From: Candidatus Saccharimonadota bacterium | Lineage (GTDB): Archaea > Nanohalarchaeota > Nanosalinia > Nanosalinales > Nanosalinaceae | DNA length: 32,000 nt | Direction: 5' to 3' | Assembly (NCBI RefSeq): GCF_029232205.1 | Contig: NZ_CP107255.1 | Coordinates: 510,001-542,000 of the forward strand | Shown: positions 1-32,000 of the stretch, in pieces | How positions within the stretch are numbered: position 1 is the first letter of the stretch | Layout: every line of letters starts with the position of its first letter | Position numbers and translations under genes: made by a program | Notes under the pieces: model-generated | What the model was told of the DNA's origin: nothing | Databases searched by the model: none | The model's input: the letters and a program-made list of their open reading frames with translations, nothing else

Positions 1-824
1 TGATCAACGACAGACAGCTTCTGGAGTCAATCCTTGAATCTCATGGAATTGAAAAAACAGAAGAGGCCATGAAAGTTGTCGATGACAAGGAGAAACTGGA
101 TAGAGAAGAGTTTCTCGAAGACCTAATGGACAGAGGCCTTTCACGTGAGGATGCGGAACAGGTTGACGAACTCACCGATATTTCAGGCCCTATCCTCGAT
201 CAGATAGATGATCTCAGGGAGAAAGCTCCTGAAGAAGTTCAGAAATCTGTTGACAGAATGGAATCTCTTGGAGAGACCCTGGAAAGTTACGGTGTTGAGT
301 ACATGTGCCGTATTGATCTATCAATTGTCAGAGGCCTTGCATACTACACAGGACTTGTGTTCGAGGCCTTCGATTCTGAGGGAGAGCTACGAGCTTTGTT
401 CGGCGGTGGCCGTTACGATGAACTGGTTGGCCAGTTCGGTGATCGGGATGTTCCGGCTGTTGGATTTGCTTTCGGTTACTCGCCTACGATCGAGCTTCTG
501 AAGAAGGAGGATCGGTATCCTCTGAAGGATGTTGAGACAGATGTCTACGTACTCACAGTGTCCGAATCAGTCAGAGACGTGGCCCTTGATTATGCGACCA
601 AGTTGAGGAAGAAAGGCCTATCTGTGGAGACTGACTTGGCCGGAAGAGGTTTCGGCTCACAGTTAGGATACGCTGACGACATGAATGCGAAAAGAGTCTT
701 GATTGTTGGAGAACGTGACTTGGAGAACGATGAGGTTACTATGAAGCATATGGATTCTGGTGAGGAGGAGAATCTAGGTAGGGATGAAGTGCTTGAGCAT
801 CTCAGATCAGAGGGCCTCTTCTAG
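1..824 (+). CDS. hisS: Histidyl-tRNA synthetase, C-terminal portion (5' end outside window)
   Basis: Frame is open from nt 3. Contains the class-II motif-3 region GGGRYDELVGQFG..VPAVGFAFG, followed by an anticodon-binding-type domain (DVYVLTV..AKRVLIVGERD). Confidence 0.8.
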   Translation, partial: INDRQLLESILESHGIEKTEEAMKVVDDKEKLDREEFLEDLMDRGLSREDAEQVDELTDISGPILDQIDDLREKAPEEVQKSVDRMESLGETLESYGVEYMCRIDLSIVRGLAYYTGLVFEAFDSEGELRALFGGGRYDELVGQFGDRDVPAVGFAFGYSPTIELLKKEDRYPLKDVETDVYVLTVSESVRDVALDYATKLRKKGLSVETDLAGRGFGSQLGYADDMNAKRVLIVGERDLENDEVTMKHMDSGEEENLGRDEVLEHLRSEGLF

Positions 825-1203
825 TTTCCTCTTCTTTTCTGTCAAAAATCTCTCCTTCCTCATTTATTACAAAGTTTTTTGCTGTTAGGAGTTCGAACTC
901 TCCTTCTATGCCTGATATTACTGTTTTCAGTGTTTCAGGATCATACTGATCTGATTTAGCGCCGGAGAATACGTACGTTTCCTCTCCTTCTTGAAACTCT
1001 GCCATTTTCTGTTCGGGAGAACCTCCTATCTCTCCCGGAGAAATATGTGTGGCGTAGAGGCCATCTTCATGGATTGAAACTGCGCCAACACAGTAGCAGA
1101 GTTCTTCCATAGCTACAGCTCCATCGTAGAACCCGCACTGATCGACATCCACATCATAGAAAGAGCCTGAGTAGGCCTCTAAACTTTCAGATTCCTGAAT
1201 CAT
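802..1203 (-). CDS. Hypothetical acidic protein
   Basis: ORF 802..1320 trimmed to the internal ATG at 1203 (MIQESESLEAY..), which removes overlap with the upstream gene. No motif recognised. Its 3' end overlaps the hisS stop convergently. Confidence 0.4.
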   Translation of the reverse strand: MIQESESLEAYSGSFYDVDVDQCGFYDGAVAMEELCYCVGAVSIHEDGLYATHISPGEIGGSPEQKMAEFQEGEETYVFSGAKSDQYDPETLKTVISGIEGEFELLTAKNFVINEEGEIFDRKEEETRRGPLI

Positions 1204-1249
1204 GATCCCTGTAACAGGTTCTGCTACAAAATTTAAAAATCGGCAGAAC

Positions 1250-1633
1250 TTAGGCGAACTCTCCAAGGTTCTTCTGCTGTTCTTTTCTTTCCTCCTTGAA
1301 AAAGTTGTATTCTCGTACAATCCAGCGGGTAAGAAGATTTACAACAGCATCAATCTGTTTATCACTTAGCTCTGGGCCTGCAGGAATTCTATGAGCTCTG
1401 GAAAGCTCTTTTCTGGAAGCTGAGTTGCATGCATGCATGGCCTTGTATACAGGGTTTCCGGCTGACGGCGTCTGATGGCCATCATTATCAGGCTGTTCCC
1501 TCAACTTGTTTTCTACAATTCTTCGGGCCTGATCCTTTATCTCAGGGATGCCTAGCTCTTTAATCAGCTGAATATCCTCCTCTGTCAGCCTAGGCCTTGT
1601 CTTATCTCTTCCTGGGAGTTTTAACTTTCTCAT
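1250..1633 (-). CDS. Hypothetical small basic protein
   Basis: 127-aa ORF with coding-like composition (MRKLKLPGRDKTRPRLTEEDIQLIKELGIPE..). Family not recognised with confidence. Confidence 0.45.
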   Translation of the reverse strand: MRKLKLPGRDKTRPRLTEEDIQLIKELGIPEIKDQARRIVENKLREQPDNDGHQTPSAGNPVYKAMHACNSASRKELSRAHRIPAGPELSDKQIDAVVNLLTRWIVREYNFFKEERKEQQKNLGEFA

Positions 1634-1669
1634 ATTTAAGATAGGCGTTCAAATAATTTAAGCCTGAAC

Positions 1670-2065
1670 TTAGCTAGGCCAGTAGAGATCGGAGTCGAAA
1701 CTTTTCTCCCTTGTATACCAGGTTGCCAGTGTTGAAGGGATTGAAAGAAAAACCAGTGCCACTGCTGTAAGTTTTATCCAGAGGCCTTGATCGATAATAT
1801 TGGTTAGAGGACCTACCGCGATCAGGATTCCTCCTACGGATGCAGAAATATCTATCATGTAGTGCATGTACTCTGATTCTCCCTGGAGGAATCCTCCAGA
1901 GAAAGTCGATATACCGTACAGAACAAATAGTACCGTGCTCAGAAGGCCAGGATCAGCCCGGTAGCTGTCTGAAATTGACGGTATGTAGAAGGTCAGTGAA
2001 ATTACAATTATGATAGCTCCAAGAATCATTACAGGAGGATTTATCTGGCCTTCAGAATTGCTCAT
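1670..2065 (-). CDS. Integral membrane protein (about 4 TM helices)
   Basis: Four hydrophobic stretches, e.g. PPVMILGAIIIVISLTFYIPSI and LWIKLTAVALVFLSIPSTLATWY. Confidence 0.5.
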   Translation of the reverse strand: MSNSEGQINPPVMILGAIIIVISLTFYIPSISDSYRADPGLLSTVLFVLYGISTFSGGFLQGESEYMHYMIDISASVGGILIAVGPLTNIIDQGLWIKLTAVALVFLSIPSTLATWYTREKSFDSDLYWPS

Positions 2066-2105
2066 AGTAAAAATGATGCGCGGAGATGAATAAAAACTTC
2101 TTCGC

Positions 2106-2858
2106 CTATATCTCTATTCTTATAGGCCTGTGATCTGAAAATGTCTCTTCCAGCGTTGTCACGGCCACGTCCAGATTATCTGAGCTGAAGGCCATGTCAA
2201 GAGGTTTCTCCGGGCTGTCTGCAGGAAAAGTTTTTCCATCGTGAAAATGTTTGTCGAAGATTTTTCTGGCTGTCTCTATTTCAGAGGCCTTCATGAAGTT
2301 GAAGTCTCCAGCTACTATGTATTTTTCTCGCTGTTCTGCGATATTTTTTATCTGCTTCATCTGTTTTCTTCTTACTTTTTTGCCGAATCTTGCCAGATGC
2401 ACTGAGAAAATGCTTAGAGAGTCTTTCTGGATTTCCTGTACCAGAGACTTCGTTCCTTTATCCAGGTAATGGTTCTCAACTTTTTCTGTCGCGGCCACCA
2501 TGTTTGACATGTTTCTTGAGAAAGGTGTCCTTGAGAGTACTCCGCTGTACTTTGTTCGCGAGCAACTGTCGAATTTATCTGGAAGAGAGTTCTTCAGGGC
2601 CTCGGTGTTAGAATGCCTTGAGCTTCTTATCGAGCCCTGGTCAACTTCCTGTAGAAGAACCGCGTCAGGGCCTTCTCTTTCAATCATTTCTGTGAATTCT
2701 TTCCTCGAATTTCTCTGTATCTCGGAATCTCCTATGACTGTTCTCAGTGGGTGCCTGAGATAGTTCGAAAGTCTTCCGCTGTAACCGAGGAAGTATCCTG
2801 CGTTCACAGATATTATCTTCACGTGTAACCTAGTTTCCTCCTGATTCGATAAATACAA
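2106..2858 (-). CDS. Endonuclease/exonuclease/phosphatase (EEP) family protein
   Basis: N-terminal VLLQEVD, internal GDFNF and C-terminal SDHRPIRIEI are the typical EEP catalytic motifs. Confidence 0.65.
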   Translation of the reverse strand: MYLSNQEETRLHVKIISVNAGYFLGYSGRLSNYLRHPLRTVIGDSEIQRNSRKEFTEMIEREGPDAVLLQEVDQGSIRSSRHSNTEALKNSLPDKFDSCSRTKYSGVLSRTPFSRNMSNMVAATEKVENHYLDKGTKSLVQEIQKDSLSIFSVHLARFGKKVRRKQMKQIKNIAEQREKYIVAGDFNFMKASEIETARKIFDKHFHDGKTFPADSPEKPLDMAFSSDNLDVAVTTLEETFSDHRPIRIEI

Positions 2859-2893: not shown

Positions 2894-4090
2894 ATGCCTT
2901 ACAAAATCGGTTTAGTCGGTAAACCTTCCGTAGGAAAATCCACTTTCTTCAATGCAGCCACAATGAACTCGGTCGATGAAGGAAACTATCCCTTCACAAC
3001 CATTGATCCCAGTGTTGGAGAGGCCTACGTACGGGTAGAATGTGCAGCACCTGACTTTGACGAAGAATGTGATCCAAGAGTAGGATTCTGTAATCATGGA
3101 ACCCGTTACGTACCTGTCAAACTTGTGGATGTCGCAGGATTGATTCCCGGAGCTCACGAAGGTAAAGGCCTTGGTAACAAGTTCCTGACCGATCTGAACG
3201 AGGCCGATGTACTGATTCATATTGTTGATTTCTCAGGTGAGACAGATATCGAGGGAGAGCCGACTGAGGGCCACGATCCAAGGAAAGATATCGATTTCCT
3301 TGAGGAAGAACTTGACATGTGGTACCTTGAGATCCTGGAGAAAGGGATTGAAAGATATAATTCGAAGAGCCGGCAGCAGGACATAAAACTGGAGGAGGAG
3401 CTGGCCGAACAGATGTCAGCGTTCAAGACCAACAAGAACGAAATTAAACAGTTAATTTTACAGGAAGGCCTTGAACTGGATCCTGATACATGGGATGATG
3501 AGGATAAACATGATCTGGCCCGTTCAATCAGGAAGGAGACCAAGCCAATGATTATTGCGGCCAATAAAATGGATACTGAGAAAGCTCAGAATAACTACGA
3601 TGAAATTACTTCTGATCCTGAATACGAGCATCTTGACTTTGTGCCGGCCAGTGCTCATGCAGAGAAGGCCTTGAAGAATGCTGCCGAGCAGGATGTAGTT
3701 GATTACTATCCTGGAGATGAAGAGTTTGAGATACTAACCGATGATCTTCCGGAAGAGAAGGAGAAAGGCCTTGATCAGATAAGAGAGTTTATGGAGAAGT
3801 ACGGTGGTACAGGAGTCCAGCAGGCGATGGAATCTGCCTTGTTTGATGAGCTAGGTGTTATGGCTGTCTTCCCTGGCGGTGCTGACGGCCTCGGCGATGA
3901 ACATGGTAATATCTTGCCGGACTGTTTCCTTGTGCCGGAGAATGCTACTGCAAAGGACTTTGCGTATACTATTCACAGCGATCTAGGCGATGGATTTATT
4001 CATGCGGTTGATTGTAGGGAGAACCGTCAGATAGGTGCTGATCACGAGCTTGAGCAGGGCGATGTTATAGAGATTATATCTTCGAACTAG
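2894..4090 (+). CDS. Obg-family GTPase (YchF/DRG-like) with C-terminal TGS-like domain
   Basis: P-loop GLVGKPSVGKSTFFNA, G3 DVAGLIPGAHEG and G4 AANKMD. The C-terminus (..GDVIEIISSN) is TGS-like. Confidence 0.8.
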   Translation: MPYKIGLVGKPSVGKSTFFNAATMNSVDEGNYPFTTIDPSVGEAYVRVECAAPDFDEECDPRVGFCNHGTRYVPVKLVDVAGLIPGAHEGKGLGNKFLTDLNEADVLIHIVDFSGETDIEGEPTEGHDPRKDIDFLEEELDMWYLEILEKGIERYNSKSRQQDIKLEEELAEQMSAFKTNKNEIKQLILQEGLELDPDTWDDEDKHDLARSIRKETKPMIIAANKMDTEKAQNNYDEITSDPEYEHLDFVPASAHAEKALKNAAEQDVVDYYPGDEEFEILTDDLPEEKEKGLDQIREFMEKYGGTGVQQAMESALFDELGVMAVFPGGADGLGDEHGNILPDCFLVPENATAKDFAYTIHSDLGDGFIHAVDCRENRQIGADHELEQGDVIEIISSN

Positions 4091-4740: not shown

Positions 4741-5211
4741 ATGGGTAGTGTGAGGCTTTCAGATATCGAGTATACTTTTGAGGGCGGCGAGCTTCTTGAC
4801 AGGCTTGATAATCTGCAGGGAGCTATTCTGACTGCTGAACAGGCCGCTGATTCTTCTGATACTCATGTTGATTATGCTCTCGGTTATCTTGAGAGTGCTG
4901 AGGAACAGATCGATCAGTTCTTTGCTGATGAAAGAATCAGGTATCCTATTCAGTGTGATATTGTGGATGCGGAGACTGATACTATTCTTGCTGAGGATAG
5001 AGAGGGCGAGATCAACATTGATCCGGAAGGTTTTGATCACATGGTTGAGGCCTTGAAGGAGATTGATCCTCACTTGGGCAGTAGAACTCCGGGCGTACTT
5101 GATTATGAAACAGCTCCTTCGCCCTGTGCAATCATTGATTTTTCCACAGAATTGATTGAGGCCTATGAGGATATGCAACAGGCCTATGATGCCCTTGAGT
5201 CAGCTAGTTAG
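4741..5211 (+). CDS. Hypothetical acidic protein
   Basis: ORF 4669..5211 trimmed to the ATG at 4741 (MGSVRLSDIEY..), because the upstream part overlaps the divergent gene's start. Confidence 0.4.
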   Translation: MGSVRLSDIEYTFEGGELLDRLDNLQGAILTAEQAADSSDTHVDYALGYLESAEEQIDQFFADERIRYPIQCDIVDAETDTILAEDREGEINIDPEGFDHMVEALKEIDPHLGSRTPGVLDYETAPSPCAIIDFSTELIEAYEDMQQAYDALESAS

Positions 5212-5233: not shown

Positions 5234-6445
5234 CTAGTTTGTGTATCTGTAGATGGTTGCTGTGGCCATGATCAGGATTCCTGCTACTGTTAATGGCATG
5301 GCTGGTGTGAATAGTGCTGCTGCGATTCCTGAGATCATTGAGGGTATTGCGTTTGCGAGGGCTCTGACGCTCTGGTTTGTTCCGAGGGCTAGTCCCTGGT
5401 CTTTTTCGGATGCGTTGTTTGATACGAGAGTGTTTAGAGCTATCTGTGTGAGTGAGTTATTTACAGAGAATAGTGTTACTGCGGCCATGAAAGGTATGAG
5501 GCTTTGTGGTATAGGTTGTAGGAATATGAATAGGCCTGTCAGGAATAGTGTTATTGGCATTACTTTTTCTTCAGGGTATTTTGCAAATATTTTTGGTACT
5601 AGGATGGTTTGGCCGAAGATTACCAGTATTCCTATGTATAGGAAGAAGTTTCCTGTGTTGAACTGGGTGAAGTTGAATTTCTGTACCAGGTATACTGGTA
5701 TGAATGTGGTGAAGAATGCGAATCCTGAGAAGTAGAAGAAGTTGACTCCGAAGAGTTTTTTCAATCCAGGTATCTGGAATCCTTTCTTTAGCTGGGTGAG
5801 AGGTTTTTTCCAGTTAATTTTCTTTTCTTCCATGGGGCTTGTTTCGTCAAGTTTGTATCTTGAGTAGATCAGGCTTGCTGTTGAGAGTGTTGCTGCAAAG
5901 TAGAATGGTAGAGTGGCGGAGAACCATGGATGGAGATCTGAGGAGAGAAGGCCTCCGAGGAACGGTCCTAGTATGAATCCTGTTCCGAAAGCTGCTCCTA
6001 TTAGTCCGAAGTTCTTGCTTTTTTCATCTTTGCTGCTGACATCGGCGATAGTGGCCTGCGCTACTGAGATAAGCCCTCCTGTTAGTCCGTTGATTATTCT
6101 TGATAGGAAGAGTATTGGTATGCTGGCTGCTATGATTCCGTAGGCGAATATGAGTGTTGAGATTACTGTGCCGGTTATAGATAGCTGGATTACTGTTTTT
6201 CTGCCGTAGATATCGCTTACTTCTCCGAGTATAGGTGTTGCTATGAACTGTCCTAGAGGGTACAATCCGATTAGCAGGCCAAGCAGTATGTATCCCATAT
6301 TGATGGATAGGCCTTCTGGCAGCAAGAAGTATGAGGAGCTTGGTTCTGTGAAGAAAAGAGGTACGATCGGTATAAGTATTCCAAAGCTTATTACTTCAGC
6401 TATAACTGTTAAAAACAACGTTCTGAGGGTTTTAGAACTTTCCAT
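5234..6445 (-). CDS. MFS transporter (drug/H+ antiporter-like)
   Basis: About 12 hydrophobic helices. The motif-A-like loop GEVSDIYGRK between TM2 and TM3 is typical of MFS. Confidence 0.7.
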   Translation of the reverse strand: MESSKTLRTLFLTVIAEVISFGILIPIVPLFFTEPSSSYFLLPEGLSINMGYILLGLLIGLYPLGQFIATPILGEVSDIYGRKTVIQLSITGTVISTLIFAYGIIAASIPILFLSRIINGLTGGLISVAQATIADVSSKDEKSKNFGLIGAAFGTGFILGPFLGGLLSSDLHPWFSATLPFYFAATLSTASLIYSRYKLDETSPMEEKKINWKKPLTQLKKGFQIPGLKKLFGVNFFYFSGFAFFTTFIPVYLVQKFNFTQFNTGNFFLYIGILVIFGQTILVPKIFAKYPEEKVMPITLFLTGLFIFLQPIPQSLIPFMAAVTLFSVNNSLTQIALNTLVSNNASEKDQGLALGTNQSVRALANAIPSMISGIAAALFTPAMPLTVAGILIMATATIYRYTN

Positions 6446-8322: not shown

Positions 8323-8661
8323 TTAAGGCCTTATGTATGCGTATCCGTCTGTCTGGAGTTTTGTGAGTTCTCCTATGCCTGATGGCACGGCCTCTACTCG
8401 CTGAAGTAGTTCTTTCTCTTTAATTTCTCTTGATTCCAGTGAGTTGTTGCAGGCCTTGATCTGTACTTCTTTGTCAAGTAGTTCTTGGAAGTATTTTTCT
8501 GCTGCCGAGTCTTTTCTGGCTGCTTTTACTGCGTCTGCGTTGAGAAGTATTGCTATTTCCGGGTCTTCTACTGTGGGGTCCTGTAATAGGTTGCGGGCGT
8601 TGGCTACTGCTTCCGCAATTTTGTCAGAATTATTGGAGGAAATGTGGATGACGGTTTTCAT
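8323..8661 (-). CDS. DsrE/DsrF-like family protein
   Basis: Trimmed to the ATG at 8661 (MKTVIHISSNN..), which gives an ATGA overlap with the upstream stop. The pattern ..ILLNADAVKAA..IKACNNSL.. is typical of DsrE-like proteins. Confidence 0.5.
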   Translation of the reverse strand: MKTVIHISSNNSDKIAEAVANARNLLQDPTVEDPEIAILLNADAVKAARKDSAAEKYFQELLDKEVQIKACNNSLESREIKEKELLQRVEAVPSGIGELTKLQTDGYAYIRP

Positions 8662-9369: not shown

Positions 9370-9393
9370 TGTCTATCACCAAGTTTTCAGGCC

Positions 9394-24546: not shown

Positions 24547-26289
24547 TTACTTTACTGTCACGCTTTTCGCAAGGTTTCTCGGCTTGTCAGGGTTATGGCC
24601 TCTTTTAACCGCGGTCCTGTATGCAAGCAGCTGGAAGATTGCAACTTCCAGAATCTCTGAGTTCTCATCCTCCGGAACCTCGAAGAAGTGCTTGAAATCC
24701 CCCATATTCTTCCTGCCGACACCGATAATGTCTGCGCCACGGGATTCAGCCTCCTTCGCATTGGAGAAAATATCTTCAAGGCCCTCATCACGCATGAATG
24801 CGACTACCGGAGTTCCTTCCTCTACAAGTGCGATAGTACCGTGCTTGAACTCTCCGCCAGGGAAGGCCTCAGAGTGAATGTATGATAGCTCTTTCAACTT
24901 GAGAGAGGATTCCTTTGCGACTTCGAATCCTTTCTCTCTGCCGATAAAGTATACGTGTTCCTGTTTCTGCAGGTATTCGCTGACCTCTTCAACAGTATCC
25001 TCATTATCTTCCAGAACTTCTGGTATCTTTCCTGCTGACTTGATCAGTGATTCGCGGGCCTCTTTGAGAGAGCTCTGTGCAGTCATTCCTATCAATTTGA
25101 GAACTGCAAGCTGGGCTGTGAAGGCCTTTGTAGATGCGACCCCTATCTCTGGGCCTGCGTTGATGTACATGGTGTGGTCTGCTTTGCGTGCGAGTGTGGA
25201 ACCTACCACGTTAACGATAGATAGGACAGGTGCATCAACCCCTTCCAGCATGGAAAGAAGGTCCGCTGTCTCACCTGACTGACTGATCGCGATAATCAGA
25301 TCGTCGTCTTTGACATGGTTGTTCCAGTACTCCATTTCGTGACTCTGCTCAGATATGACATCGTAACCGGCCTCTCTAAGATATTTTGCTCCAAGATCGG
25401 CTGCGTAGCTTGAGGTTCCGCATCCTGAAAGATATACTGTATCGGCCTCTTCAATCATCTCAATTGCTTTCTTCACATCGCTGTGATCCTGGAAAACCGC
25501 CCTCTTCACTGTATCTGGCTGCTCATTTATCTCTTTCTGCATGAAGTGATCATGGCCTTCCTTGGAGGCCTCCTCTGCATCCCAGTCGATATGGTTGACC
25601 TCTCTTTCAATTATTTCTCTATTATTCTTTATCTCATAGTTTCCGCCTTCTATTCTGACTATGTCGCCGTCTTCGAGAAATACTGCTTTGTCGGTGTGTT
25701 CGAGGAAGGGAGTTACGTCGGAGGCCAGGAACAGCTCTCCATCCGAGATCCCGAGTGCCAATGGAGAACTTTCCTTGAATGCCGCCATCTCTCCGCTATC
25801 TTTTACCGCTACTACTGCGTAGGAGCCTTCAAGCATATCCACTACCTCCTCAACAGCTCTGTGGAAATCATTCAGCTCTCTGTGTTTTTCTTCGATAAGC
25901 CTTGGAATAACTTCTGTATCTGTCTCCGACCTAAAATCATGGCCTGAGAGATGCTCCTCCTTCAACTCCTCGTAGTTATTGATAATTCCGTTATGAACTA
26001 CCGCTATATCTCCCGAACGACTTCTGTGAGGATGTGCATTGTAGTCTGTTACACCACCATGTGTGGCCCAGCGAGTATGTCCGATTCCGACGTTGCCATC
26101 GATCTCAGCCTCTGAGATATCGTTGATGGCCTCGTCGATTGTACCTGTTCCTTTCTCTACCTTTACTGTAGGGTTTCCTGCCGTGGCAATACCAGCAGAA
26201 TCATATCCCCGGTACTCCAACTTCTTCAATCCTCTGTAAATTTTCTCGGCCGCTTCATCTTCACCGCTGTATCCAACAATTCCACACAT
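24547..26289 (-). CDS. glmS: Glutamine--fructose-6-phosphate aminotransferase (isomerizing)
   Basis: N-terminal MCGIVGY (Ntn Cys), GHTRWATHG, two SIS domains (ISQSGETADL) and C-terminal ..AKSVTVK. Confidence 0.9.
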   Translation of the reverse strand: MCGIVGYSGEDEAAEKIYRGLKKLEYRGYDSAGIATAGNPTVKVEKGTGTIDEAINDISEAEIDGNVGIGHTRWATHGGVTDYNAHPHRSRSGDIAVVHNGIINNYEELKEEHLSGHDFRSETDTEVIPRLIEEKHRELNDFHRAVEEVVDMLEGSYAVVAVKDSGEMAAFKESSPLALGISDGELFLASDVTPFLEHTDKAVFLEDGDIVRIEGGNYEIKNNREIIEREVNHIDWDAEEASKEGHDHFMQKEINEQPDTVKRAVFQDHSDVKKAIEMIEEADTVYLSGCGTSSYAADLGAKYLREAGYDVISEQSHEMEYWNNHVKDDDLIIAISQSGETADLLSMLEGVDAPVLSIVNVVGSTLARKADHTMYINAGPEIGVASTKAFTAQLAVLKLIGMTAQSSLKEARESLIKSAGKIPEVLEDNEDTVEEVSEYLQKQEHVYFIGREKGFEVAKESSLKLKELSYIHSEAFPGGEFKHGTIALVEEGTPVVAFMRDEGLEDIFSNAKEAESRGADIIGVGRKNMGDFKHFFEVPEDENSEILEVAIFQLLAYRTAVKRGHNPDKPRNLAKSVTVK

Positions 26290-26465: not shown

Positions 26466-27380
26466 ATGTTTGAAATGGCTGGAGTAATTGAAGACGGAAA
26501 ATCCGTCAATGCGGAAGAAATCACACCTGAAATAATCAGGGCTCTCTCCGATGAAACCAGAAGAAAAATAGTGGGGGAAATAGCAGAGGGAGAGGCCTAC
26601 CCATCAGAAGTAGCAAAAAAACTTGAGCTCAGCAAACAGAAGGCCTACTACCACTTCAACAAACTTCAGGACGCAGGAATAATAGAGAAAACAAGAAGTG
26701 AGGAAAAATCCGGAGGAACAGCCACATACTACTCTCTGAAGTCAAAGGCCTACTACCTACTGCTGACAGATCCAGAGGAAGGCCTACCCGTACAGCAAAC
26801 AAGCCAGGGCACCGCAGATTTTCTATCACCTCTCATCGTTGACGGCGATCTGAAAGGAGATATCGTGGTTGGTTCGCCAGATCAACACGGTCCTGACCAG
26901 GTAAGAGCACGTGATGGCCATCTCGCAGGAGAAATAGGTCTCGAACTCGGAAAATACTGCGACACCGATTCCCGTAATGTTTCACTGGATACAGAAATCT
27001 TCAGGAGAGAAAGCTTTGATGAAAACATGATTCTTGTAGGCGGAGTCCTGACAAATACAGTAACGAAAAAATTCAATGAACATTTCCCGGCACATTTCTC
27101 GGGAGAAGAATTTCCATACAGAGAGCTTTCAACACCCAACTCAACCTACAGCGAGGCCTCAATCGGAGTAGTAGCCAAGACACAGCATCCGGAAAACCCT
27201 GATAACGCAGTCTACCTTATAGCCGGCATCAGAAACCAGGGTACAGAGGCCGCAGTCAGAGCCTTCAAAAACCTGGAAGACATAACAGAAGATTACAGCG
27301 GGGGAGATTACTATAAAATTGTCAGAGGCCTTGACATGGACGGTGACGGAGAAGTAGACAGCTTCGAAGTCGTAGAATAA
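26466..27380 (+). CDS. Winged-helix (ArsR-like) HTH protein with large C-terminal domain
   Basis: The HTH segment is LSDETRRKIVGEIAEGEAYPSEVAKKLELSKQKAYYHFNKLQDAGIIEK. The C-terminal roughly 200 aa (..ILVGGVLTNTVTKKF..LIAGIRNQGTEAAVRAF) resembles S-layer-like domains fused to HTH in other archaea (from memory). Confidence 0.6.
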   Translation: MFEMAGVIEDGKSVNAEEITPEIIRALSDETRRKIVGEIAEGEAYPSEVAKKLELSKQKAYYHFNKLQDAGIIEKTRSEEKSGGTATYYSLKSKAYYLLLTDPEEGLPVQQTSQGTADFLSPLIVDGDLKGDIVVGSPDQHGPDQVRARDGHLAGEIGLELGKYCDTDSRNVSLDTEIFRRESFDENMILVGGVLTNTVTKKFNEHFPAHFSGEEFPYRELSTPNSTYSEASIGVVAKTQHPENPDNAVYLIAGIRNQGTEAAVRAFKNLEDITEDYSGGDYYKIVRGLDMDGDGEVDSFEVVE

Positions 27381-27402: not shown

Positions 27403-28626
27403 ATGAACAACTGGGAAGTATTTCAAACCGACGTACTCGATCTTCTAAGACAGTACCAGGGATTTTTCGACTTCTTCGAGAGAATCGGCAGTCTCAGAGA
27501 TAACTCGAGGCCTGACGCATTCGCAAGAATCTCCCGCGACGATAAAAAAGAGGTCTGGGTGATCGACGCCAAAAACAAGGCCGAAATCGACAGTGAAGAC
27601 CTTAACAGAATGGATAAATACGTTGAAATGGCGAAAAATGATCCCATAGATATAGGCCTTGAGCTTTCAGAACTTTCAGAATACAAATTCCGTGGAATCT
27701 TTGTAACAAACCGTGGAGAAATACAATTGGATAACTACGAGCAACTGAAGTTTTCTCAGCTACATCAGTTCCTGCAGAAAGAGTTAATTTACACAGATAC
27801 TGAGAAAGTGATCAGAGATATTGCCAAAATGGCGGAAAGAGAACAACTATCTCACAGCGAGGCCCGACTGCTATTCCGATCCATGAAACCTTTCGAGAAA
27901 AATATTGAGAGAGCAATGGAAGAGCTTGAAAGAATAGAGAGAAAATACGTAGGCCTCAAACTGAAGAAACCACCTCTCGACAGCTTTGACTTCCAGGTGC
28001 CGGTCGACGCAGTACTGGTACATGAAGACCGTGGAAAGGCCTTTCTCTTTGATATACCGTACACCTCTCGAGGTCTTGAGAATGTAGAGGAAAAAGTTGA
28101 GGAAGTCAAGAGCAGAATGGAGTCAGGCCTTGACAAAGAACTTTACTATGCTACGATCGACACCTCTGGCTCGGAGGAAGGCCGTTTCATCTACAGCCTG
28201 GAAGAACTTGAGTCCGAGATACAGGAGACAGCGGCTATAGTCTCGCCGGAGGATGTAGTCGATATTTTCACGCCGAAAATCCCGGTAGAAAAAGAATACA
28301 CTGATTCAGGAATCGTTGTCAGAGGGAAGAAAGGCCTTGACTTTGTGCTGCGTGTAGAAACCAGTAATGACAGAGATTACAGTGTTTCAGCCCGGCTTCC
28401 GGAGACATCGGCCTCTAGAATCAAGGATAACTCTATCAACGCCCGGAAAGAGCTTGGAGAACTTGAAGGCAGAAATTTCAGCCATGAATTCAGCGTTGAA
28501 GAGGATTTATCTATCTCCTACGATGAGAGAACTGAAAGCTGGCAAAGCTACAGAGACACGGTAAGAAGCATTTACGGCTCCGCACTGAACCCTGTGCTCA
28601 GCAAGCAGGTTCAGAGAATGGTGTAG
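27403..28626 (+). CDS. Protein with N-terminal PD-(D/E)xK (Mrr-cat-like) nuclease-fold signature and unknown C-terminal region
   Basis: WEVFQTDVLDLLRQYQGF..RPDAFARI..EVWVIDAKNK..GIFVTNRG follows the helix-D..(D/E)xK-..-beta pattern of restriction-endonuclease-like domains. The remaining roughly 270 aa are unrecognised. Confidence 0.45.
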   Translation: MNNWEVFQTDVLDLLRQYQGFFDFFERIGSLRDNSRPDAFARISRDDKKEVWVIDAKNKAEIDSEDLNRMDKYVEMAKNDPIDIGLELSELSEYKFRGIFVTNRGEIQLDNYEQLKFSQLHQFLQKELIYTDTEKVIRDIAKMAEREQLSHSEARLLFRSMKPFEKNIERAMEELERIERKYVGLKLKKPPLDSFDFQVPVDAVLVHEDRGKAFLFDIPYTSRGLENVEEKVEEVKSRMESGLDKELYYATIDTSGSEEGRFIYSLEELESEIQETAAIVSPEDVVDIFTPKIPVEKEYTDSGIVVRGKKGLDFVLRVETSNDRDYSVSARLPETSASRIKDNSINARKELGELEGRNFSHEFSVEEDLSISYDERTESWQSYRDTVRSIYGSALNPVLSKQVQRMV

Positions 28627-28670: not shown

Positions 28671-29096
28671 ATGGAAGACGAAAAATTTCTTGAAAAGAAA
28701 AGGCTGGAAGCCGAAGTCGCCAAACTTGAAAGAGACGTCGATGCAGCAATAGTAGAAGGCCTCTCCGACAAGATCGCGCTCAGGAAACTTGGATTCCGGT
28801 CAAAGATTTTTCTGTCAGCAGAAAGAACAGTGGAAGACCTGGTAGAAGACGTCGCCAGAGGCGCAGAAAGAGTAGTGGTGCTAACAGATTTCGATGAACA
28901 CGGCAAAGAACAGCACAAGAAAATATCCCGGGCCCTCAATGAAGAAATAGATGTTATGCACTCTGCCCGGAAAGACTTTGGCACACAGCTAACCTCAACA
29001 GGCAGAAGAACAGTCGAGGCCGTCCTACCGCTCTTTGAGGACAAGGAAAGAAAATTTGTTGAGGCCCAGCTTTCAGGCCTGTACATGGATCTCTAG
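28671..29096 (+). CDS. Small Toprim-domain protein (archaeal RNase M5/UPF0292-like)
   Basis: AAIVEGLSDKIALRKLG (conserved Glu) and VVVLTDFDEHGKE (DxD). 141 aa. Confidence 0.65.
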   Translation: MEDEKFLEKKRLEAEVAKLERDVDAAIVEGLSDKIALRKLGFRSKIFLSAERTVEDLVEDVARGAERVVVLTDFDEHGKEQHKKISRALNEEIDVMHSARKDFGTQLTSTGRRTVEAVLPLFEDKERKFVEAQLSGLYMDL

Positions 29097-29145
29097 ATTT
29101 TCTCTGTCAAATGTAGTTAAAAAATTATAGAGCGCGATATTTTCC

Positions 29146-29481
29146 ATGAGTGTAAGCGAGACAGGATACGATCCTTTAGAAGTAGAAAAAGTAATAGACG
29201 ATGCCTACAGATTCGCTGAAGATAACGCGGAATATCAGGAACCTCTGGAAGAAGCAATTGAAATGGTAGAGTCAATGCCGTACTCAGTAAACGAAGACGG
29301 CACGTACACCGAAGACCATATGGTTGAAACAATTGAAGGCCTCAACGAACTTGATAACCTACAGAGACAGATGACGCGTGACGGAAATGTTGAACTAGCA
29401 GACGAAGTAAGAGGCCTGGAAGACTACCTGGAGAACCATGTGCTCAGACCTGTCAGAGAAAACGGCAAACTCCAAAACTAG
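29146..29481 (+). CDS. Hypothetical small acidic protein
   Basis: 111-aa ORF on the same strand, directly after the Toprim gene. Confidence 0.4.
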   Translation: MSVSETGYDPLEVEKVIDDAYRFAEDNAEYQEPLEEAIEMVESMPYSVNEDGTYTEDHMVETIEGLNELDNLQRQMTRDGNVELADEVRGLEDYLENHVLRPVRENGKLQN

Positions 29482-30461
29482 AAATCCGTCAAAGAGGCCT
29501 GATTCTGCTTCAAGGCACGAGCATTAATCCCTTTCTCCCTCTTCAAATAAGATGCAAAGGCCTCATCAAAACCGTGATGCGTATAAACCTCTTCAGGCCC
29601 AACTTTCTCCACCAGCTGCACCAACTCATCAAAATCACAGTGATCGGAGAACGGAAAAGTCCTATCATAGCCTCCACGATGCCTGAAAGCCTCCTGAGCA
29701 GCCCAGCCAGAGAATCCAGCCTTTAAACCATCAACCTTATCCACAAACTTGTTCAGGCCATCGTTACGGGAGAAACGAGAAGGCCCGATAAAAATAGCGT
29801 TATCCTCTAGCATATCTTTGTTCTCTCCGTAAGGCTTCGCCCGGAAATCAAGGCCTGTAACCTCTTCAACTACATCATTCATCTTCTTTACAGCACCGTG
29901 TGCAACAATAGGTCTTTCAGTAGCTTCCTCTACAATATGCTGGATTTTCTGGGCCTTACCTAGCGAGTAACCAAATAGAAACAGCGGATTATTGTTATCC
30001 TGCACCCAGTCACGTATCTCGGCCTCAATCTCCTTCTGATCAGGAAACCTGTAAGCTGGAATACCGTAAGTAGATTCAACAACAAGTACATCTGCTGAGA
30101 CAGGTTGAAAACCGTTAAGATAAGCTCTATCCCTCAAGGAAACGTCGCCAGTGTAAAGATACTTCCTCTCGTCCCCGAACCTTACAGCAGTGGAGCCAAG
30201 AATATGGCCTGAAGGAATCAACTCGTAGGAAGAACTCTCAAAACTTTCAAACTCCTTGTCTGTACGGGCCTCCGCCAGCTTTCTCGTCAACTCCGATGCC
30301 ACGACAGGGTTATCTCCCTGATGAACGTGATCCATGTGAGCATGAGAAACAATATTTACATCTCCAGAGGCCTTACGAGAATCAGCTACAACTTTTTCTT
30401 CAAGATCAAAATGGATGCCGTCCTTCTCCCTGATCATCAATGTAACCAGTATAGAAGTCAA
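29478..30461 (-). CDS. MBL-fold / beta-CASP-like nuclease (small RNA/DNA-processing exonuclease type)
   Basis: VSHAHMDHV (HxHxDH), later ESTYG and C-terminal FSDHCDF..YTHHG, typical of short beta-CASP proteins. Confidence 0.6.
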   Translation of the reverse strand: MTSILVTLMIREKDGIHFDLEEKVVADSRKASGDVNIVSHAHMDHVHQGDNPVVASELTRKLAEARTDKEFESFESSSYELIPSGHILGSTAVRFGDERKYLYTGDVSLRDRAYLNGFQPVSADVLVVESTYGIPAYRFPDQKEIEAEIRDWVQDNNNPLFLFGYSLGKAQKIQHIVEEATERPIVAHGAVKKMNDVVEEVTGLDFRAKPYGENKDMLEDNAIFIGPSRFSRNDGLNKFVDKVDGLKAGFSGWAAQEAFRHRGGYDRTFPFSDHCDFDELVQLVEKVGPEEVYTHHGFDEAFASYLKREKGINARALKQNQASLTDF

Positions 30462-30548: not shown

Positions 30549-30786
30549 GGGGTCGTAGCTCAATTGGCAGAGCGTCCGCCTCCAGCGACTGCTGTAGCAG
30601 GTCGACAGTACTTGATGGTTCAATGAACCATCTCCAGCTTGTTACGGTTTCTGGAGGAATGAGGCCTTTACCAAGGCTGATGATTAAATCTTAAGGTGCA
30701 TTCTCTTCGGAATGCTCCGTGGTGATGGAACTTCCAGAAGTTCCGGAGATAGCGGAAGGTTGCAAGTTCAAGTCCTGCCGGCCCCA
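30549..30786 (+). tRNA. tRNA-Trp (anticodon CCA) with 165-nt intron at 37/38 (30586..30750)
   Basis: Acceptor GGGGTCG/CGGCCCC and D stem GCTC/GAGC. Anticodon stem TCCGC/GCGGA with loop CT-CCA-G then the intron then A. T arm GCAAG-TTCAAGT-CCTGC has one A.C mismatch. A 4-bp BHB central helix pairs C32-C35 with GGAG 30745..30748, flanked by 3-nt bulges. Confidence 0.75.
30586..30750 (+). ncRNA. tRNA-Trp intron with candidate box C/D-type guide element
   Basis: UGAUGA at 30678..30683 and UGAUGG at 30613 and 30723. CUGGAGG (30651..30657) is complementary to anticodon-loop nt 31-37. It is followed by A-AUGA, so the 5th nt upstream of the D'-like box pairs with C34. Confidence 0.4.
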
Positions 30787-30851
30787 ACACTCTACTTCTA
30801 CAGTTTTTTTCTACAGGCCTGAAATACGAGGATACAGCGGTCTTCTGTTAA

Positions 30852-30860
30852 TTTTTAAAA
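30852..30860 (+). promoter_or_regulatory. TATA-box-like element (TTTTTAAAA) about 28 nt upstream of the ATG at 30884
   Basis: AT-rich box at the spacing expected for a leaderless archaeal transcript starting at or near the ATG. Confidence 0.3.
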
Positions 30861-30883
30861 GGATGTTAAGTCAATTCTTAGGT

Positions 30884-31543
30884 ATGACAGATAACGACGA
30901 TCTTCTTGATGGCACAGTCGATGAAGTGAAGGACAAGATCGATGAAGCCACAGATCTCGATTACAGTTCTCTCCTCAGTTCAGAGGAGGAAGGTAAGGAC
31001 CGAAAAACCGTTAAAGAATACATTGAAAGTAAAATGAGCAATGACGAAGAAGACGATTCCGAAGAAGCTGAAGATGTCTCAGAGGAAGAAGTTCTCGAAG
31101 AGATAGAGAAAGAGACAGCAGGAGGAATCCTGGGAGGATACTCCAAGAACTCTATCTTTGCAGGAGGACTAATCCTAGGCCTTCTTGTAGGACTAGTAGC
31201 AATGGGCGTTTCAGGTATGGCAGGAGGACAGGATAAAGTCTCTCCTCAGACAGCACAGGATCGCGTCACACAGATTGTTGGAGAGCAAGTACAGCTCTCA
31301 AGCTTTGAGACAGAGCACGGCCTATACACATTCAACATCACAAGTTCAGGCCAGCAGGGTAATGAGACAGTTACCAGGACTCAGAGCTTCTACATGACTC
31401 TTGACGGCGATAAGATTATTCCAAAACAATCACCTCTTACAGGAAGCTCAATGGTTATCGACGTTGAGGATGCAATAAGTGCTGCTGAACAGCAGAGGAA
31501 TCAACCGACAACCAACCAGACAACAGGAAACACAACCCAGTAA
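30884..31543 (+). CDS. Single-pass membrane protein with acidic N-terminal and extracellular C-terminal domain
   Basis: ORF 30719..31543 trimmed to the ATG at 30884 because the longer form overlaps the tRNA-Trp 3' exon. TM helix IFAGGLILGLLVGLVAMGVSG. Confidence 0.5.
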   Translation: MTDNDDLLDGTVDEVKDKIDEATDLDYSSLLSSEEEGKDRKTVKEYIESKMSNDEEDDSEEAEDVSEEEVLEEIEKETAGGILGGYSKNSIFAGGLILGLLVGLVAMGVSGMAGGQDKVSPQTAQDRVTQIVGEQVQLSSFETEHGLYTFNITSSGQQGNETVTRTQSFYMTLDGDKIIPKQSPLTGSSMVIDVEDAISAAEQQRNQPTTNQTTGNTTQ

Positions 31544-31666
31544 ACCTGGGAAGTGACTTTTCCTCTTTTCCACCATATTTTCCCTCTCTTTCTTTACCCA
31601 GATTTTTAGGCCAACCAAAAAGTGCTTATAGATGAACTACAAGTAATGGTTAAAGGTGATTTTTCT

Positions 31667-32000
31667 ATGAGCAAGAAAAAAGGACTAATGAAACTACCGT
31701 ATGAATACGACGACCTAACCCCACATATCTCCAAACAGGTACTGGAATGGCACCACGACGTGCACCACCAGGGCTATGTCAACGGATGGAACAGTGCAGA
31801 AGAAAGACTTGAAGAACAGAGAGATCAAGATGATTACAGTTCAACAGGTTCAATCCTGAAAGACTTCACCCACAACCACTCAGGAACAGTACTACACAAC
31901 CTATTCTGGAAAAACATGAGCCCGAACGGCGGAGGAAGGCCTGAAGGAGCACTCATGGACAAAATAGAGGAAGACTTCGGAAGCTACGAAAACTGGAAGA
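31667..32000 (+). CDS. sod: Fe/Mn superoxide dismutase, N-terminal part (3' end outside window)
   Basis: Hand translation gives MSKKKGLMKLPYEYDDLTPHISKQVLEWHHDVHHQGYVNGWN..HNHSGTVLHNLFWKNMSP. The ORF has no stop within the window, so it is absent from the track. Confidence 0.85.
   Translation, partial: MSKKKGLMKLPYEYDDLTPHISKQVLEWHHDVHHQGYVNGWNSAEERLEEQRDQDDYSSTGSILKDFTHNHSGTVLHNLFWKNMSPNGGGRPEGALMDKIEEDFGSYENWK

Follow-up and report, generated by a model that had tools for sequence, protein, structure and literature searches.

AGGCCT, a hexanucleotide palindrome, is strongly over-represented in a 32,000-base stretch of nanohaloarchaeal DNA (contig NZ_CP107255.1, positions 510,001 to 542,000; called the window below), and is best described as a word of the highly iterated palindrome (HIP) type that belongs to a subset of the Nanohaloarchaeota. 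It will be seen that a bias favours the complete hexamer some 20-40-fold over equivalent alternatives, alike in the three codon phases and in non-coding DNA, and that the word fills 50-70% of the positions where the protein sequence allows it. The trait is patchy among lineages and has lapsed in some sublineages, with a decay that proceeds mostly by GC-to-AT transitions. That a lineage-specific force acting at the DNA level stands behind the excess is, in our judgement, close to certain.

Abundance of AGGCCT in the window

The window has a GC content of 44.5%, and its sites were counted by exact scan. AGGCCT occurs 80 times, corresponding to 2500 copies per Mb, which is 13.4 times the 6.0 copies expected from base composition. 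The original prediction, made by a manual scan, had put the count at about 80 with about 6 expected, and these figures agree with it. All of its quoted coordinates are also correct except 342, which should read 332. In 100 dinucleotide-preserving shuffles the mean count is 7.26 (standard deviation 3.03, largest value 16). Among all 4096 hexamers AGGCCT is the most over-represented, and it is the sole palindrome in the top 25; the hexamers ranked after it (AAGGCC, GAGGCC, GGCCTT and GGCCTC) are overlaps of AGGCCT itself.

Markov models of orders 0 to 4 give expectations of 6.0, 7.1, 21.6, 45.2 and 73.9 copies. The comparison with the maximal order, which had been proposed as a check, was run and yields a ratio of only 1.08 (80 vs 73.9). 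It was discarded as a test, because many GGCC tetramers already lie inside AGGCCT and the pentamers, being made of the same sites, carry the same excess; the test is saturated in the window, and the excess itself stands. The core GGCC is found at 2.9 times expectation in the window, at 1.9-2.6 times in the other enriched groups described below and at 0.6 times in non-enriched relatives. The share of GGCC that lies inside AGGCCT is 35% in the window and 58-67% in denser relatives, and CCGG stands at 0.9 times expectation in the window.

Sites are densest at 26.5-29.6 kb, with 18 where the window mean would give 7.75 (6 per kb, p = 0.001), much as had been noticed for 26.5-29.5 kb, and none is present between 15,094 and 17,979. 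The dense stretch (26500-29600) covers the HTH/S-layer-like gene, a gene for a 407-aa unknown protein, the Toprim gene and a gene for a 111-aa unknown protein. As a separate observation, GCGC (19 vs 78 expected) and CGCG (26 vs 78 expected) are 3-4-fold depleted in the window, and GCGC lies at 0.1-0.8 times expectation in all nanohaloarchaeal loci, AGGCCT-enriched or not.

Codon phase and effect on the proteins

Genes were called from open reading frames (ORFs), and most of them were checked against Pfam. They include genes for HisRS, an Obg-like GTPase, an MFS protein, ThiI, SepF, prefoldin, the exosome proteins Rrp42, Rrp41 and Rrp4, SBDS, proteasome alpha, GT2, two MBL-fold proteins, GlmS, a Toprim protein and SOD. 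The excess had been claimed to be independent of reading frame, and this is what we find: 16 sites lie in phase 0 (AGG-CCT, Arg-Pro), 24 in phase 1 (xAG-GCC-Txx) and 34 in phase 2 (xxA-GGC-CTx), with Gly-Leu as the commonest context. They occur on both strands and between genes, as also claimed, with 42 in + genes and 32 in - genes; the non-coding DNA, ca 3.0 kb of the window, holds 6 sites vs ca 0.56 expected (Poisson p = 3e-5). The sites are as follows, with the host gene or ORF and its strand, the codon phase and the encoded residues in one-letter code.

134..139, + gene 3-824 (HisRS), phase 2, R-G-L
332..337, + gene 3-824 (HisRS), phase 2, R-G-L
364..369, + gene 3-824 (HisRS), phase 1, E-A-F
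614..619, + gene 3-824 (HisRS), phase 2, K-G-L
1173..1178, - ORF 802-1248, phase 1, E-A-Y
1592..1597, - gene 1250-1633 (DUF4186), phase 0, R-P
1782..1787, - gene 1670-2065, phase 2, Q-G-L
2124..2129, - gene 2106-2858 (exo/endonuclease/phosphatase family), phase 0, R-P
2285..2290, - gene 2106-2858 (exo/endonuclease/phosphatase family), phase 1, K-A-S
3021..3026, + gene 2894-4090 (Obg-like GTPase), phase 1, E-A-Y
3166..3171, + gene 2894-4090 (Obg-like GTPase), phase 2, K-G-L
3466..3471, + gene 2894-4090 (Obg-like GTPase), phase 2, E-G-L
3666..3671, + gene 2894-4090 (Obg-like GTPase), phase 1, K-A-L
3766..3771, + gene 2894-4090 (Obg-like GTPase), phase 2, K-G-L
5048..5053, + ORF 4669-5211, phase 1, E-A-L
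5159..5164, + ORF 4669-5211, phase 1, E-A-Y
5180..5185, + ORF 4669-5211, phase 1, Q-A-Y
5532..5537, - gene 5234-6445 (MFS), phase 2, T-G-L
5949..5954, - gene 5234-6445 (MFS), phase 2, G-G-L
6309..6314, - gene 5234-6445 (MFS), phase 2, E-G-L
6695..6700, - gene 6482-7621 (ThiI), phase 0, R-P
6798..6803, - gene 6482-7621 (ThiI), phase 2, E-G-L
7562..7567, - gene 6482-7621 (ThiI), phase 0, R-P
8209..8214, - gene 7677-8261, phase 2, T-G-L
8326..8331, - gene 8323-8655 (DsrE-like), phase 0, R-P
8451..8456, - gene 8323-8655 (DsrE-like), phase 1, K-A-C
9389..9394, intergenic
9974..9979, - gene 9944-10084 (46-aa zinc-ribbon-like ORF), phase 0, conserved R-P
11059..11064, - gene 10443-11228 (Rrp42), phase 2, V-G-L
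11161..11166, - gene 10443-11228 (Rrp42), phase 2, R-G-L, in most relatives R-D-L
12794..12799, - gene 12771-13235 (tRNA-editing domain), phase 1, E-A-S
13063..13068, - gene 12771-13235 (tRNA-editing domain), phase 2, K-G-L
13394..13399, - gene 13236-13916 (SBDS), phase 1, conserved K-A-Y
13464..13469, - gene 13236-13916 (SBDS), phase 0, R-P
14150..14155, - gene 13993-14703 (proteasome alpha), phase 2, E-G-L, in most relatives E-D-L
14308..14313, - gene 13993-14703 (proteasome alpha), phase 0, conserved R-P
14848..14853, intergenic, left half of AGGCCTCCAGAGGCCT
14858..14863, intergenic, right half of AGGCCTCCAGAGGCCT
15094..15099, non-coding, 36 bp past a tRNA gene, at the edge of an island
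17979..17984, + ORF 17960-18208, phase 1, K-A-Y
18166..18171, + ORF 17960-18208, phase 2, K-G-L
18488..18493, - gene 18205-18624, phase 2, I-G-L
18732..18737, treated as non-coding, the overlapping ORFs all being doubtful
19090..19095, intergenic
19510..19515, + gene 19178-20368 (GT2), phase 2, E-G-L
19547..19552, + gene 19178-20368 (GT2), phase 0, R-P
19719..19724, + gene 19178-20368 (GT2), phase 1, E-A-F
21022..21027, + gene 20365-21069, phase 0, R-P
22001..22006, - ORF 21337-22467, phase 2, V-G-L
23031..23036, + gene 22630-23325 (MBL fold), phase 2, K-G-L
23236..23241, + gene 22630-23325 (MBL fold), phase 0, R-P
23652..23657, + gene 23367-24053 (MBL fold), phase 0, R-P
23678..23683, + gene 23367-24053 (MBL fold), phase 2, K-G-L
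24864..24869, - gene 24547-26289 (GlmS), phase 1, E-A-F
25122..25127, - gene 24547-26289 (GlmS), phase 1, K-A-F
25566..25571, - gene 24547-26289 (GlmS), phase 1, E-A-S
26593..26598, + gene 26466-27380 (HTH/S-layer-like), phase 1, E-A-Y
26641..26646, + gene 26466-27380 (HTH/S-layer-like), phase 1, K-A-Y
26746..26751, + gene 26466-27380 (HTH/S-layer-like), phase 1, K-A-Y
26780..26785, + gene 26466-27380 (HTH/S-layer-like), phase 2, E-G-L
27154..27159, + gene 26466-27380 (HTH/S-layer-like), phase 1, E-A-S
27326..27331, + gene 26466-27380 (HTH/S-layer-like), phase 2, R-G-L
27508..27513, + gene 27403-28626, phase 0, R-P
27654..27659, + gene 27403-28626, phase 2, I-G-L
27951..27956, + gene 27403-28626, phase 2, V-G-L
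28037..28042, + gene 27403-28626, phase 1, K-A-F
28125..28130, + gene 27403-28626, phase 2, S-G-L
28332..28337, + gene 27403-28626, phase 2, K-G-L
28757..28762, + gene 28671-29096 (Toprim), phase 2, E-G-L
29075..29080, + gene 28671-29096 (Toprim), phase 2, S-G-L
29337..29342, + gene 29146-29481, phase 2, E-G-L
29412..29417, + gene 29146-29481, phase 2, R-G-L
29495..29500, - gene 29478-30461 (RMMBL domain), phase 1, Q-A-S
29558..29563, - gene 29478-30461 (RMMBL domain), phase 1, E-A-F
29851..29856, - gene 29478-30461 (RMMBL domain), phase 2, T-G-L
30368..30373, - gene 29478-30461 (RMMBL domain), phase 1, K-A-S
30662..30667, + ORF 30473-30694, phase 0, R-P
30815..30820, + gene 30719-31543, phase 0, R-P
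31177..31182, + gene 30719-31543, phase 2, L-G-L
31937..31942, + gene 31622-31999 (Fe/Mn SOD, cut by the window end), phase 0, R-P

When synonymous codons are shuffled so that all proteins stay the same and so does the codon usage (which the sites have themselves raised), the coding DNA is left with 14.0 ± 3.6 sites if the shuffle is pooled and 17.0 ± 3.5 if it is done gene by gene, vs the 74 observed, and each codon phase is 3.5-7 times above this expectation. Together with the equal density of non-coding DNA, this upholds the DNA-level cause that had been suggested. The two outcomes named beforehand as speaking against such a cause, a ratio near 1 under the codon model and an excess confined to a single phase, were looked for and do not occur.

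The extent of the bias can be read from the contexts that permit the word. In the window, AGGCCT encodes 16 of the 26 Arg-Pro dipeptides (2.1 expected), 34 of the 77 Gly-Leu contexts and 24 of the 42 [QKE]-Ala-[FLSYCW] contexts. When 17 enriched loci (269 kb) are pooled and compared with 21 non-enriched loci (301 kb), AGGCCT encodes 72% vs 6% of Arg-Pro, 52% vs 6% of x-Gly-Leu and 58% vs 6% of [QKE]-Ala-[FLSYCW], with an odds ratio of ca 17-40 in every permissive context. This similarity across contexts points to one context-blind process. The non-ORF DNA of the 17 enriched loci carries 3.17 sites per kb, 21 times the composition expectation, and their ORF DNA 3.11 per kb.

The same comparison can be made column by column in orthologues. 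The conserved Arg-Pro at 14308 is written AGGCCT in 10 of 10 enriched lineages vs 1 of 22 non-enriched ones, and the conserved K-A-Y of SBDS at 13394 in 9 of 10 vs 4 of 21. The proteins have been affected as well. The observed-to-expected ratio (O/E) in enriched and non-enriched loci is 1.58 vs 1.09 for the Arg-Pro dipeptide and 1.37 vs 1.00 for Gly-Leu, and the phase-1 tripeptide class is 1.85 times commoner in enriched lineages. Gly stands at 11161 and 14150 in the window and in several further enriched lineages, against Asp in most relatives, and it is a GAC-to-GGC change that makes the site. The DNA-level bias has thus shifted dipeptide usage and fixed some Asp-to-Gly replacements.

Distribution among nanohaloarchaea

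The window proteins are very acidic, and all of their close matches are in Nanohaloarchaeota, which bears out the archaeal host that had been claimed. The closest complete genome is that of 'Candidatus Nanohaloarchaea archaeon M3_22' (CP046106.1), whose proteasome alpha is 95% identical; a metagenome scan gave no relative closer than 92% protein identity. The syntenic proteasome/exosome locus was gathered from GTDB genomes and from metagenomes, which gave ca 110 related loci, denoted here by L-numbers (M3_22 is L002).

On the same syntenic genes, the AGGCCT excess is bimodal across these loci. The enriched nanohaloarchaea show 5-28 times the expectation, up to 4.9 sites per kb, and include M3_22, SG9, Nanosalina sp. 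VS9-1 and two Nanohalobium metagenome-assembled genomes (MAGs). Nanosalina J07AB43, Nanosalinarum J07AB56, NAR1, all other archaea and the Nitrospira loci are non-enriched, at 0-3 times. The comparison with related genomes that the original prediction had called for thus shows an excess that recurs in some of them and is missing in others. Among the non-enriched lineages, no other iterated palindrome rises above ca 4 times expectation.

A neighbour-joining tree was built from five concatenated proteins (1232 columns, 52 taxa, 200 bootstrap replicates). Four enriched groups, at 10-28 times the expectation against ca 1 time in the relatives interleaved with them, are each recovered in 200/200 replicates, and no replicate (0/200) unites all the enriched taxa. 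Nanosalina VS9-1 belongs to group A, which every replicate (200/200) places among non-enriched Nanosalina lineages; the three remaining groups alternate with non-enriched lineages in the tree, with moderate support. Since the enriched taxa are never monophyletic, there have been several gains or losses of the trait, each time of the same word.

Some non-enriched lineages carry few sites or none. Nanohalococcus occultus SVXNc (L162, CP104395.1 438292-459434; also L163) has 0 AGGCCT in 21 kb where 4.3 are expected, in a region that shares only a tRNA with the window, and L010, L032, L089, L106 and L109 have 0-1 sites; these sister lineages may avoid the word. The Logan dataset SRR26436575 (L001, L163) contains both a contig that is 99.96% identical to window positions 2245-5005 and a contig with the exact SVXNc methyltransferase, so that the sample harbours SVXNc as well as the organism of the window. 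Locus L032 (JBLGBK010000008.1) is assigned to a 'Colwellia polaris' MAG, yet its proteasome/exosome locus is nanohaloarchaeal (78% identity) and groups with L010; the contig is probably mis-binned.

Flanks and spacing

The sites of the window are preceded by a purine in 70% and followed by a pyrimidine in 69% of cases. The R-AGGCCT-Y bias that had been reported is accordingly real, but it is weak and reflects mainly an avoidance of T-AGGCCT-A. Beyond +/-1 the flank profile is flat (80 + 381 sites examined), and the commonest 9-mer around the sites occurs only 9 times. The spacing is near-exponential, with a coefficient of variation of 0.93-1.1 and no regular placement at the scale of the window. 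Because the flanks are uninformative and the spacing is near random, the sites are solitary hexamers and not pieces of a repeat.

The association of the two flanking bases around GGCC has an odds ratio of 2.2-4.6 in the denser groups, 1.56 in the window and 0.97 in non-enriched lineages, from which it follows that the whole hexamer, and not GGCC alone, is the unit. The window's own clade has an unusual surplus of half-sites (3.2 times).

Two local arrangements may be mentioned. The near-palindrome AGGCCTCCAGAGGCCT at 14848-14863 consists of two sites and lies upstream of the gene for proteasome alpha; both halves are kept in L003 and L011, and L012 keeps the right half and has AGGCCC for the left one. 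Viral contigs were scanned for three closely spaced sites and gave, among the matches listed, only tandem arrays and chance matches. L277 (IMGVR_UViG_2595698529_000001) carries at 6700-8430 a tandem array with a period of ca 73 bp and two AGGCCT starts 6 bp apart in each unit (AGGCCTAGGCCT); it has no relation to the dispersed sites and is possibly an array of CRISPR-like or satellite type.

Maintenance and decay of sites

Between the window and L003, which share 79.6% nucleotide identity, 16 of 23 alignable sites are conserved vs a hexamer baseline of 28% (p = 4e-5). Against M3_22 the figure is 9 of 25 vs a baseline of 30%, i.e. background. The site density of M3_22 is 1.4 per kb (7 times expectation) vs 2.5 per kb in the window, and this lineage may be in early decay.

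Across group D, whose members share ca 74% nucleotide identity, we considered the positions that carry a site in at least two other subclades. Occupancy of these positions is 50-79% in dense lineages, 36% in L103 and 7-19% in L004, L085 and L087, which have a low density (4-5 times expectation) and a lower GC content. Close relatives therefore differ in whether sites are maintained. Where group D sites have been lost, 72% of the changes at the four inner positions are GC-to-AT transitions.

Differences between relatives are spread over all six positions of the site and include transversions. Several gains are A-to-G or T-to-C transitions from AGACCT/AGGTCT, the Asp-to-Gly cases among them. As to the words one step away from AGGCCT, the ratio between enriched and non-enriched lineages is 1.02 for AGGTCT/AGACCT, 0.91 for AGGCTT/AAGCCT and 0.94-1.37 for the other internal one-off words; those changed at an outer position (BGGCCT, AGGCCV) are enriched 2.0-4.2 times. 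By a simple flux argument, with no fitted model, a drive on one neighbour word can give an excess of at most ca 4 times without emptying that neighbour. By the same argument, the excess can grow large with no change in the neighbours if complete sites are lost more slowly, or if there is a fixation bias towards them from whichever neighbour.

A foreign islet as internal control

The gap in the distribution of sites coincides with the following features.

15059..17955, motif-poor foreign islet, 2.9 kb, GC 38%
15267..17603, - strand, intact gene for a GmrSD-family type IV (modification-dependent) restriction endonuclease, cargo of the islet
14930-15058, + strand, intron-containing tRNA gene abutting the islet (Rfam 52.4 bits; missed by ARAGORN)

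The islet begins directly 3' of the tRNA gene, which is 90% identical to the M3_22 copy. M3_22 itself lacks the islet, whose two flanks are joined there. No integrase gene lies in the islet, and a search of its surroundings for att-like direct repeats gave none. Its only AGGCCT is the one at its outermost end, as against the ca 7 that DNA of native density would hold, and its GGCC count is 4 vs 3.6 expected. As an internal control, the islet shows that AGGCCT is a sound marker of native, long-resident DNA. Both the foreign nature of this segment and the use of motif density as a native marker had been proposed; the GmrSD gene, the neighbouring tRNA gene and the absence from M3_22 all speak for the foreign nature.

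Search for a responsible enzyme

Methyltransferase motifs were searched for in the six-frame ORFs of ca 75 nanohaloarchaeal loci, ca 20 kb per genome. The window has neither a methyltransferase nor a Vsr gene, and Pfam and NCBIfam scans of its unannotated ORFs gave no methyltransferase or nuclease; in the window and the loci together, no Vsr gene was found. The search for a candidate that had been recommended has therefore turned up no AGGCCT methyltransferase and no Vsr in the DNA examined, the sole methyltransferase being a C5 enzyme in L087, on an integrase-bearing island.

This island (L087 1-5100, proteasome-proximal) consists of the C5 cytosine methyltransferase gene, three unknown ORFs and a tyrosine integrase gene. 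GGCC occurs 0 times in its 5.1 kb, where 5.2 are expected, and 17 times in the rest of the contig, which may reflect restriction avoidance by the element. The enzyme is 74% identical to a Dcm-like protein of SVXNc, 64% to Halorubrum enzymes and 58% to that of the Haloarcula virus HCTV-16, and the ORFs downstream of its gene have no Vsr domain. It was rejected as the determinant, being mobile and of a GDGCHC-type family. The family as a whole (P0005, P0015-P0021 and P0035; 58-74% identity) is shared among SVXNc, Halorubrum-type hosts and HCTV-16, and its sequences suggest gene flow across a triangle of symbiont, host and virus.

Published data bear on the question as follows. In the single-molecule real-time methylome of SVXNc, GDGcHC is the only methylated motif (PMC10266531, PMC11001535); since SVXNc has 0 AGGCCT in 21 kb with 4.3 expected, it serves as a negative control and not as a test. 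Tables 1 and 2 of a REBASE-based survey give one orphan type II N4-methylcytosine (m4C) methyltransferase as the sole restriction-modification (R-M) gene of M3_22, and for Nanohalobium constans one type II 5-methylcytosine (m5C) enzyme together with type I, IIG and IV systems (PMC10609329). The supplements of that survey list large clusters only and do not give the specificity of the M3_22 enzyme (PMC10609329). In Alcanivorax borkumensis SK2, cytosine methylation of AgGCcT is documented (PMC12128166). These survey entries and the Alcanivorax methylation are leads, not evidence.

Origin of the bias

The explanation that we prefer is a methyltransferase-linked bias in repair or retention, held tentatively, at a little under an even chance. 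A dispensable, possibly transferable, sequence-specific DNA enzyme would exert the bias, the likeliest candidate being a putative orphan cytosine methyltransferase of StuI (AGGCCT) specificity. Through a presumed methyl-directed repair bias, sites once modified would have a better chance of being retained, and new ones of becoming fixed. This would be the ratchet of Elhai, who noted that alternate HIPs co-occur with cognate methyltransferases and proposed methyl-directed repair as the cause (PMC4390886). It would act mainly by a lower loss of existing sites and the fixing of one-step gains, and not by Vsr-type T:G correction. In favour of this explanation count the excess in all frames, the like occupancy of every permissive context, the patchy distribution, the maintenance and loss of sites, and the one-off words, which are enriched at outer positions in the way that Elhai reports for HIP1. 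Circumstantial support for a methyltransferase comes from the co-occurrence noted by Elhai, from the AgGCcT methylation of Alcanivorax, from the survey entries for M3_22 and Nanohalobium constans, and from SVXNc, which is methylated only at GDGcHC and lacks AGGCCT in 21 kb.

Several points weigh against it. No methyltransferase specific for AGGCCT or GGCC was found in the ca 75 loci (ca 20 kb per genome). The two enriched-clade genomes in the survey tables differ in chemistry, with m4C in M3_22 and m5C in Nanohalobium constans (PMC10609329), so that a single shared enzyme is not evident. M3_22 has a methyltransferase according to those tables, yet its site density is only 7 times expectation and its site conservation is at background (9 of 25). 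The explanation also presupposes methyl-directed mismatch repair in nanohaloarchaea. Finally, direct selection would lead one to expect conserved and saturated sites just as well, and it is what Xu et al. concluded for HIP1 (PMC5861425).

Direct selection is the main competitor, and we consider it somewhat less likely. In line with the recognised signal that the original prediction had offered as an alternative, AGGCCT would here be kept as a functional signal, either a binding site for nucleoid, segregation or chromosome organisation or a signal for recombination or DNA exchange, with a reader protein limited to certain lineages. The retention of sites above background (16 of 23 vs 28% between the window and L003, 50-79% across group D) is what such a role would give, no one-off neighbour is depleted, as if loss were opposed and gain not driven, and the preferences for flanks and half-sites are graded as in a binding-energy landscape. 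There is also a precedent, in that Xu, Lawrence and Durand took the conservation of HIP1 as evidence of selection and of a role in chromosome structure (PMC5861425), and recent preprints link HIP1 to transformation efficiency and type IV secretion. On the other hand, a saturation of 50-70% with an equal odds ratio everywhere, non-coding DNA included, looks more like a uniform bias, and selection in a symbiont with a small genome would have to act on each of thousands of weak sites. The spacing is near random, with no regularity visible at this scale, several losses of the trait have had no obvious effect, and no candidate reader protein was identified.

The original prediction had offered a GGCC-family m5C methyltransferase coupled to a Vsr-like endonuclease, which would turn T:G into C:G and so inflate the word. 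This mechanism we regard as improbable. It would account for the enrichment of the core GGCC in the window and in the other enriched groups and for the gains by transition from AGACCT/AGGTCT, and C5 methyltransferases do circulate in nanohaloarchaea. However, the deamination products that it should consume are not depleted (ratios 1.02 and 0.91), and gains and losses occur at all six positions, transversions included. By the flux argument, a drive at a single position cannot alone give an 11-20-fold excess without draining the neighbour. Neither a Vsr gene in the DNA examined nor a Vsr domain in the ORF after the L087 methyltransferase was found, and the L087 family corresponds to GDGCHC in SVXNc. 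The only methyltransferase that the survey tables list for M3_22 is of the m4C type (PMC10609329). An intact GmrSD gene would, to judge weakly from what is known of the family, be an uneasy partner for dense m5C.

Two further explanations are practically out of the question. That the excess is a mere by-product of protein composition and codon or codon-pair usage might seem natural, as GGC, GCC, AGG and CCT are all used codons and Gly-Leu is the commonest context (34 sites), but it is refuted by the like enrichment of all three phases and non-coding DNA, by the 14-17 sites, not 74, left by synonymous shuffling, by orthologues that encode the same amino acids with AGGCCT in enriched lineages and with other codons elsewhere, and by dipeptide shifts that follow the word and not the reverse. 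That the sites are copies of a longer dispersed repeat, such as a miniature inverted-repeat transposable element (MITE) or a repetitive extragenic palindromic (REP)-like element, or a DNA-uptake sequence, has the one intergenic pair forming AGGCCTCCAGAGGCCT to recommend it and is refuted for repeats by the flat flanks, the rarity of any common 9-mer and the near-exponential spacing; the equal density in coding and non-coding DNA speaks against both forms of it, and a 6-bp palindrome is too short and symmetric for known uptake sequences.

Implications

Taken in full, the picture would be that of the first archaeal HIP, in which a transferable, dispensable factor reads or modifies AGGCCT and drives it to saturation in some ectosymbiotic nanohaloarchaea, reshaping their proteomes; we offer this as a conjecture and would sooner bet against it than for it. 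If it is true, presence/absence profiling could reveal which factor is responsible and so answer how HIP-type words originate, a question 30 years old. Such profiling is feasible because the trait is present, absent or decaying in interleaved lineages with genomes of ca 1 Mb; the tiny genomes, the several switches between the enriched and non-enriched states and the decaying lineages make up a natural comparative experiment for the responsible gene. Until now, palindromes of such abundance have counted as a peculiarity of cyanobacteria, with repair bias and selection debated for three decades, and a second, independent instance in archaea shows the phenomenon to be general.

There are practical consequences too. 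AGGCCT distorts codon, dipeptide and k-mer statistics and can mislead binning, codon-usage and horizontal gene transfer analyses of nanohaloarchaea; conversely, it is a simple marker that separates native from recently acquired DNA. StuI or HaeIII would cut these genomes every ca 200-400 bp unless the sites are modified.

Comparison with known systems

Like the Dcm/Vsr system, which acts on CCWGG-related words in E. coli, AGGCCT calls for a DNA-level, sequence-specific and coding-independent change of word frequencies. The effects of Dcm/Vsr are far smaller than 13-28-fold, and, unlike there, the T-containing neighbour words of AGGCCT are not depleted. The words that an active R-M system recognises are as a rule avoided, or occur about as often as expected. 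AGGCCT, although it is the same recognition word as that of StuI-type R-M (e.g. AgGCcT in Alcanivorax borkumensis SK2, PMC12128166), is 13 times over-represented and shows nothing of the avoidance typical of an active type II target.

The repeat classes compare no better. Uptake signal sequences and DNA uptake sequences are non-palindromic words of 9-12 bp, biased in orientation and often paired in terminators; AGGCCT is a 6-bp palindrome with no extended flank information and with the same density in coding and non-coding DNA. REP and MITE copies share a longer sequence, which the AGGCCT sites do not.

The HIPs of cyanobacteria, which the original prediction had not named, are much closer. 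HIP1 (GCGATCGC) is likewise hyper-abundant, lies inside genes in all frames as well as between genes, and is conserved between genomes beyond background with no explanation at the peptide or RNA level. It departs from AGGCCT in having eight letters, an O/E of 15-300 and a link to GATC and CGATCG methyltransferases, and nearly all of its phylum carries it; a periodicity of 10-90 kb has also been reported for it, a long distance in relation to a window of 32 kb. The alternate HIPs described by Elhai in 2015, e.g. GGCGCC in Calothrix PCC 7103, have an O/E of ca 15-20 and 500-2500 copies per Mb (PMC4390886). They are sporadic, and their one-off variants are biased to the outer positions, as for HIP1 (PMC4390886). 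AGGCCT resembles GGCGCC in being a GC-rich, 6-bp, restriction-type palindrome of similar O/E and copies per Mb, sporadic among relatives, whose overlaps dominate the over-representation list and whose one-offs lie at outer positions. It differs in that its host is a DPANN archaeon, an ectosymbiont with a genome of ca 1 Mb, that its density reaches 4.9 per kb and that the trait spans whole clades and is seen decaying; a cognate methyltransferase is a feature of GGCGCC.

Full-text searches of the literature gave no paper on AGGCCT in nanohaloarchaea or other archaea, nor one on an iterated palindrome of any kind in these organisms. Set against the features by which HIPs are recognised, AGGCCT is an outstanding over-represented GC-rich palindrome (13.4 times in the window, up to 28 times in relatives, where HIPs have an O/E of ca 15 or more and hundreds to thousands of copies per Mb), occurs in all frames and between genes beyond what codon usage explains, and has one-offs enriched at the outermost positions (2.0-4.2 times vs 0.9-1.4 times for internal ones). 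Its conservation exceeds background vs L003 and across group D, and equals it vs L002. The described host range of HIPs is cyanobacterial and the window is nanohaloarchaeal; for this reason AGGCCT is placed with the HIPs as the same kind of phenomenon, and not as HIP1 or a cyanobacterial HIP.

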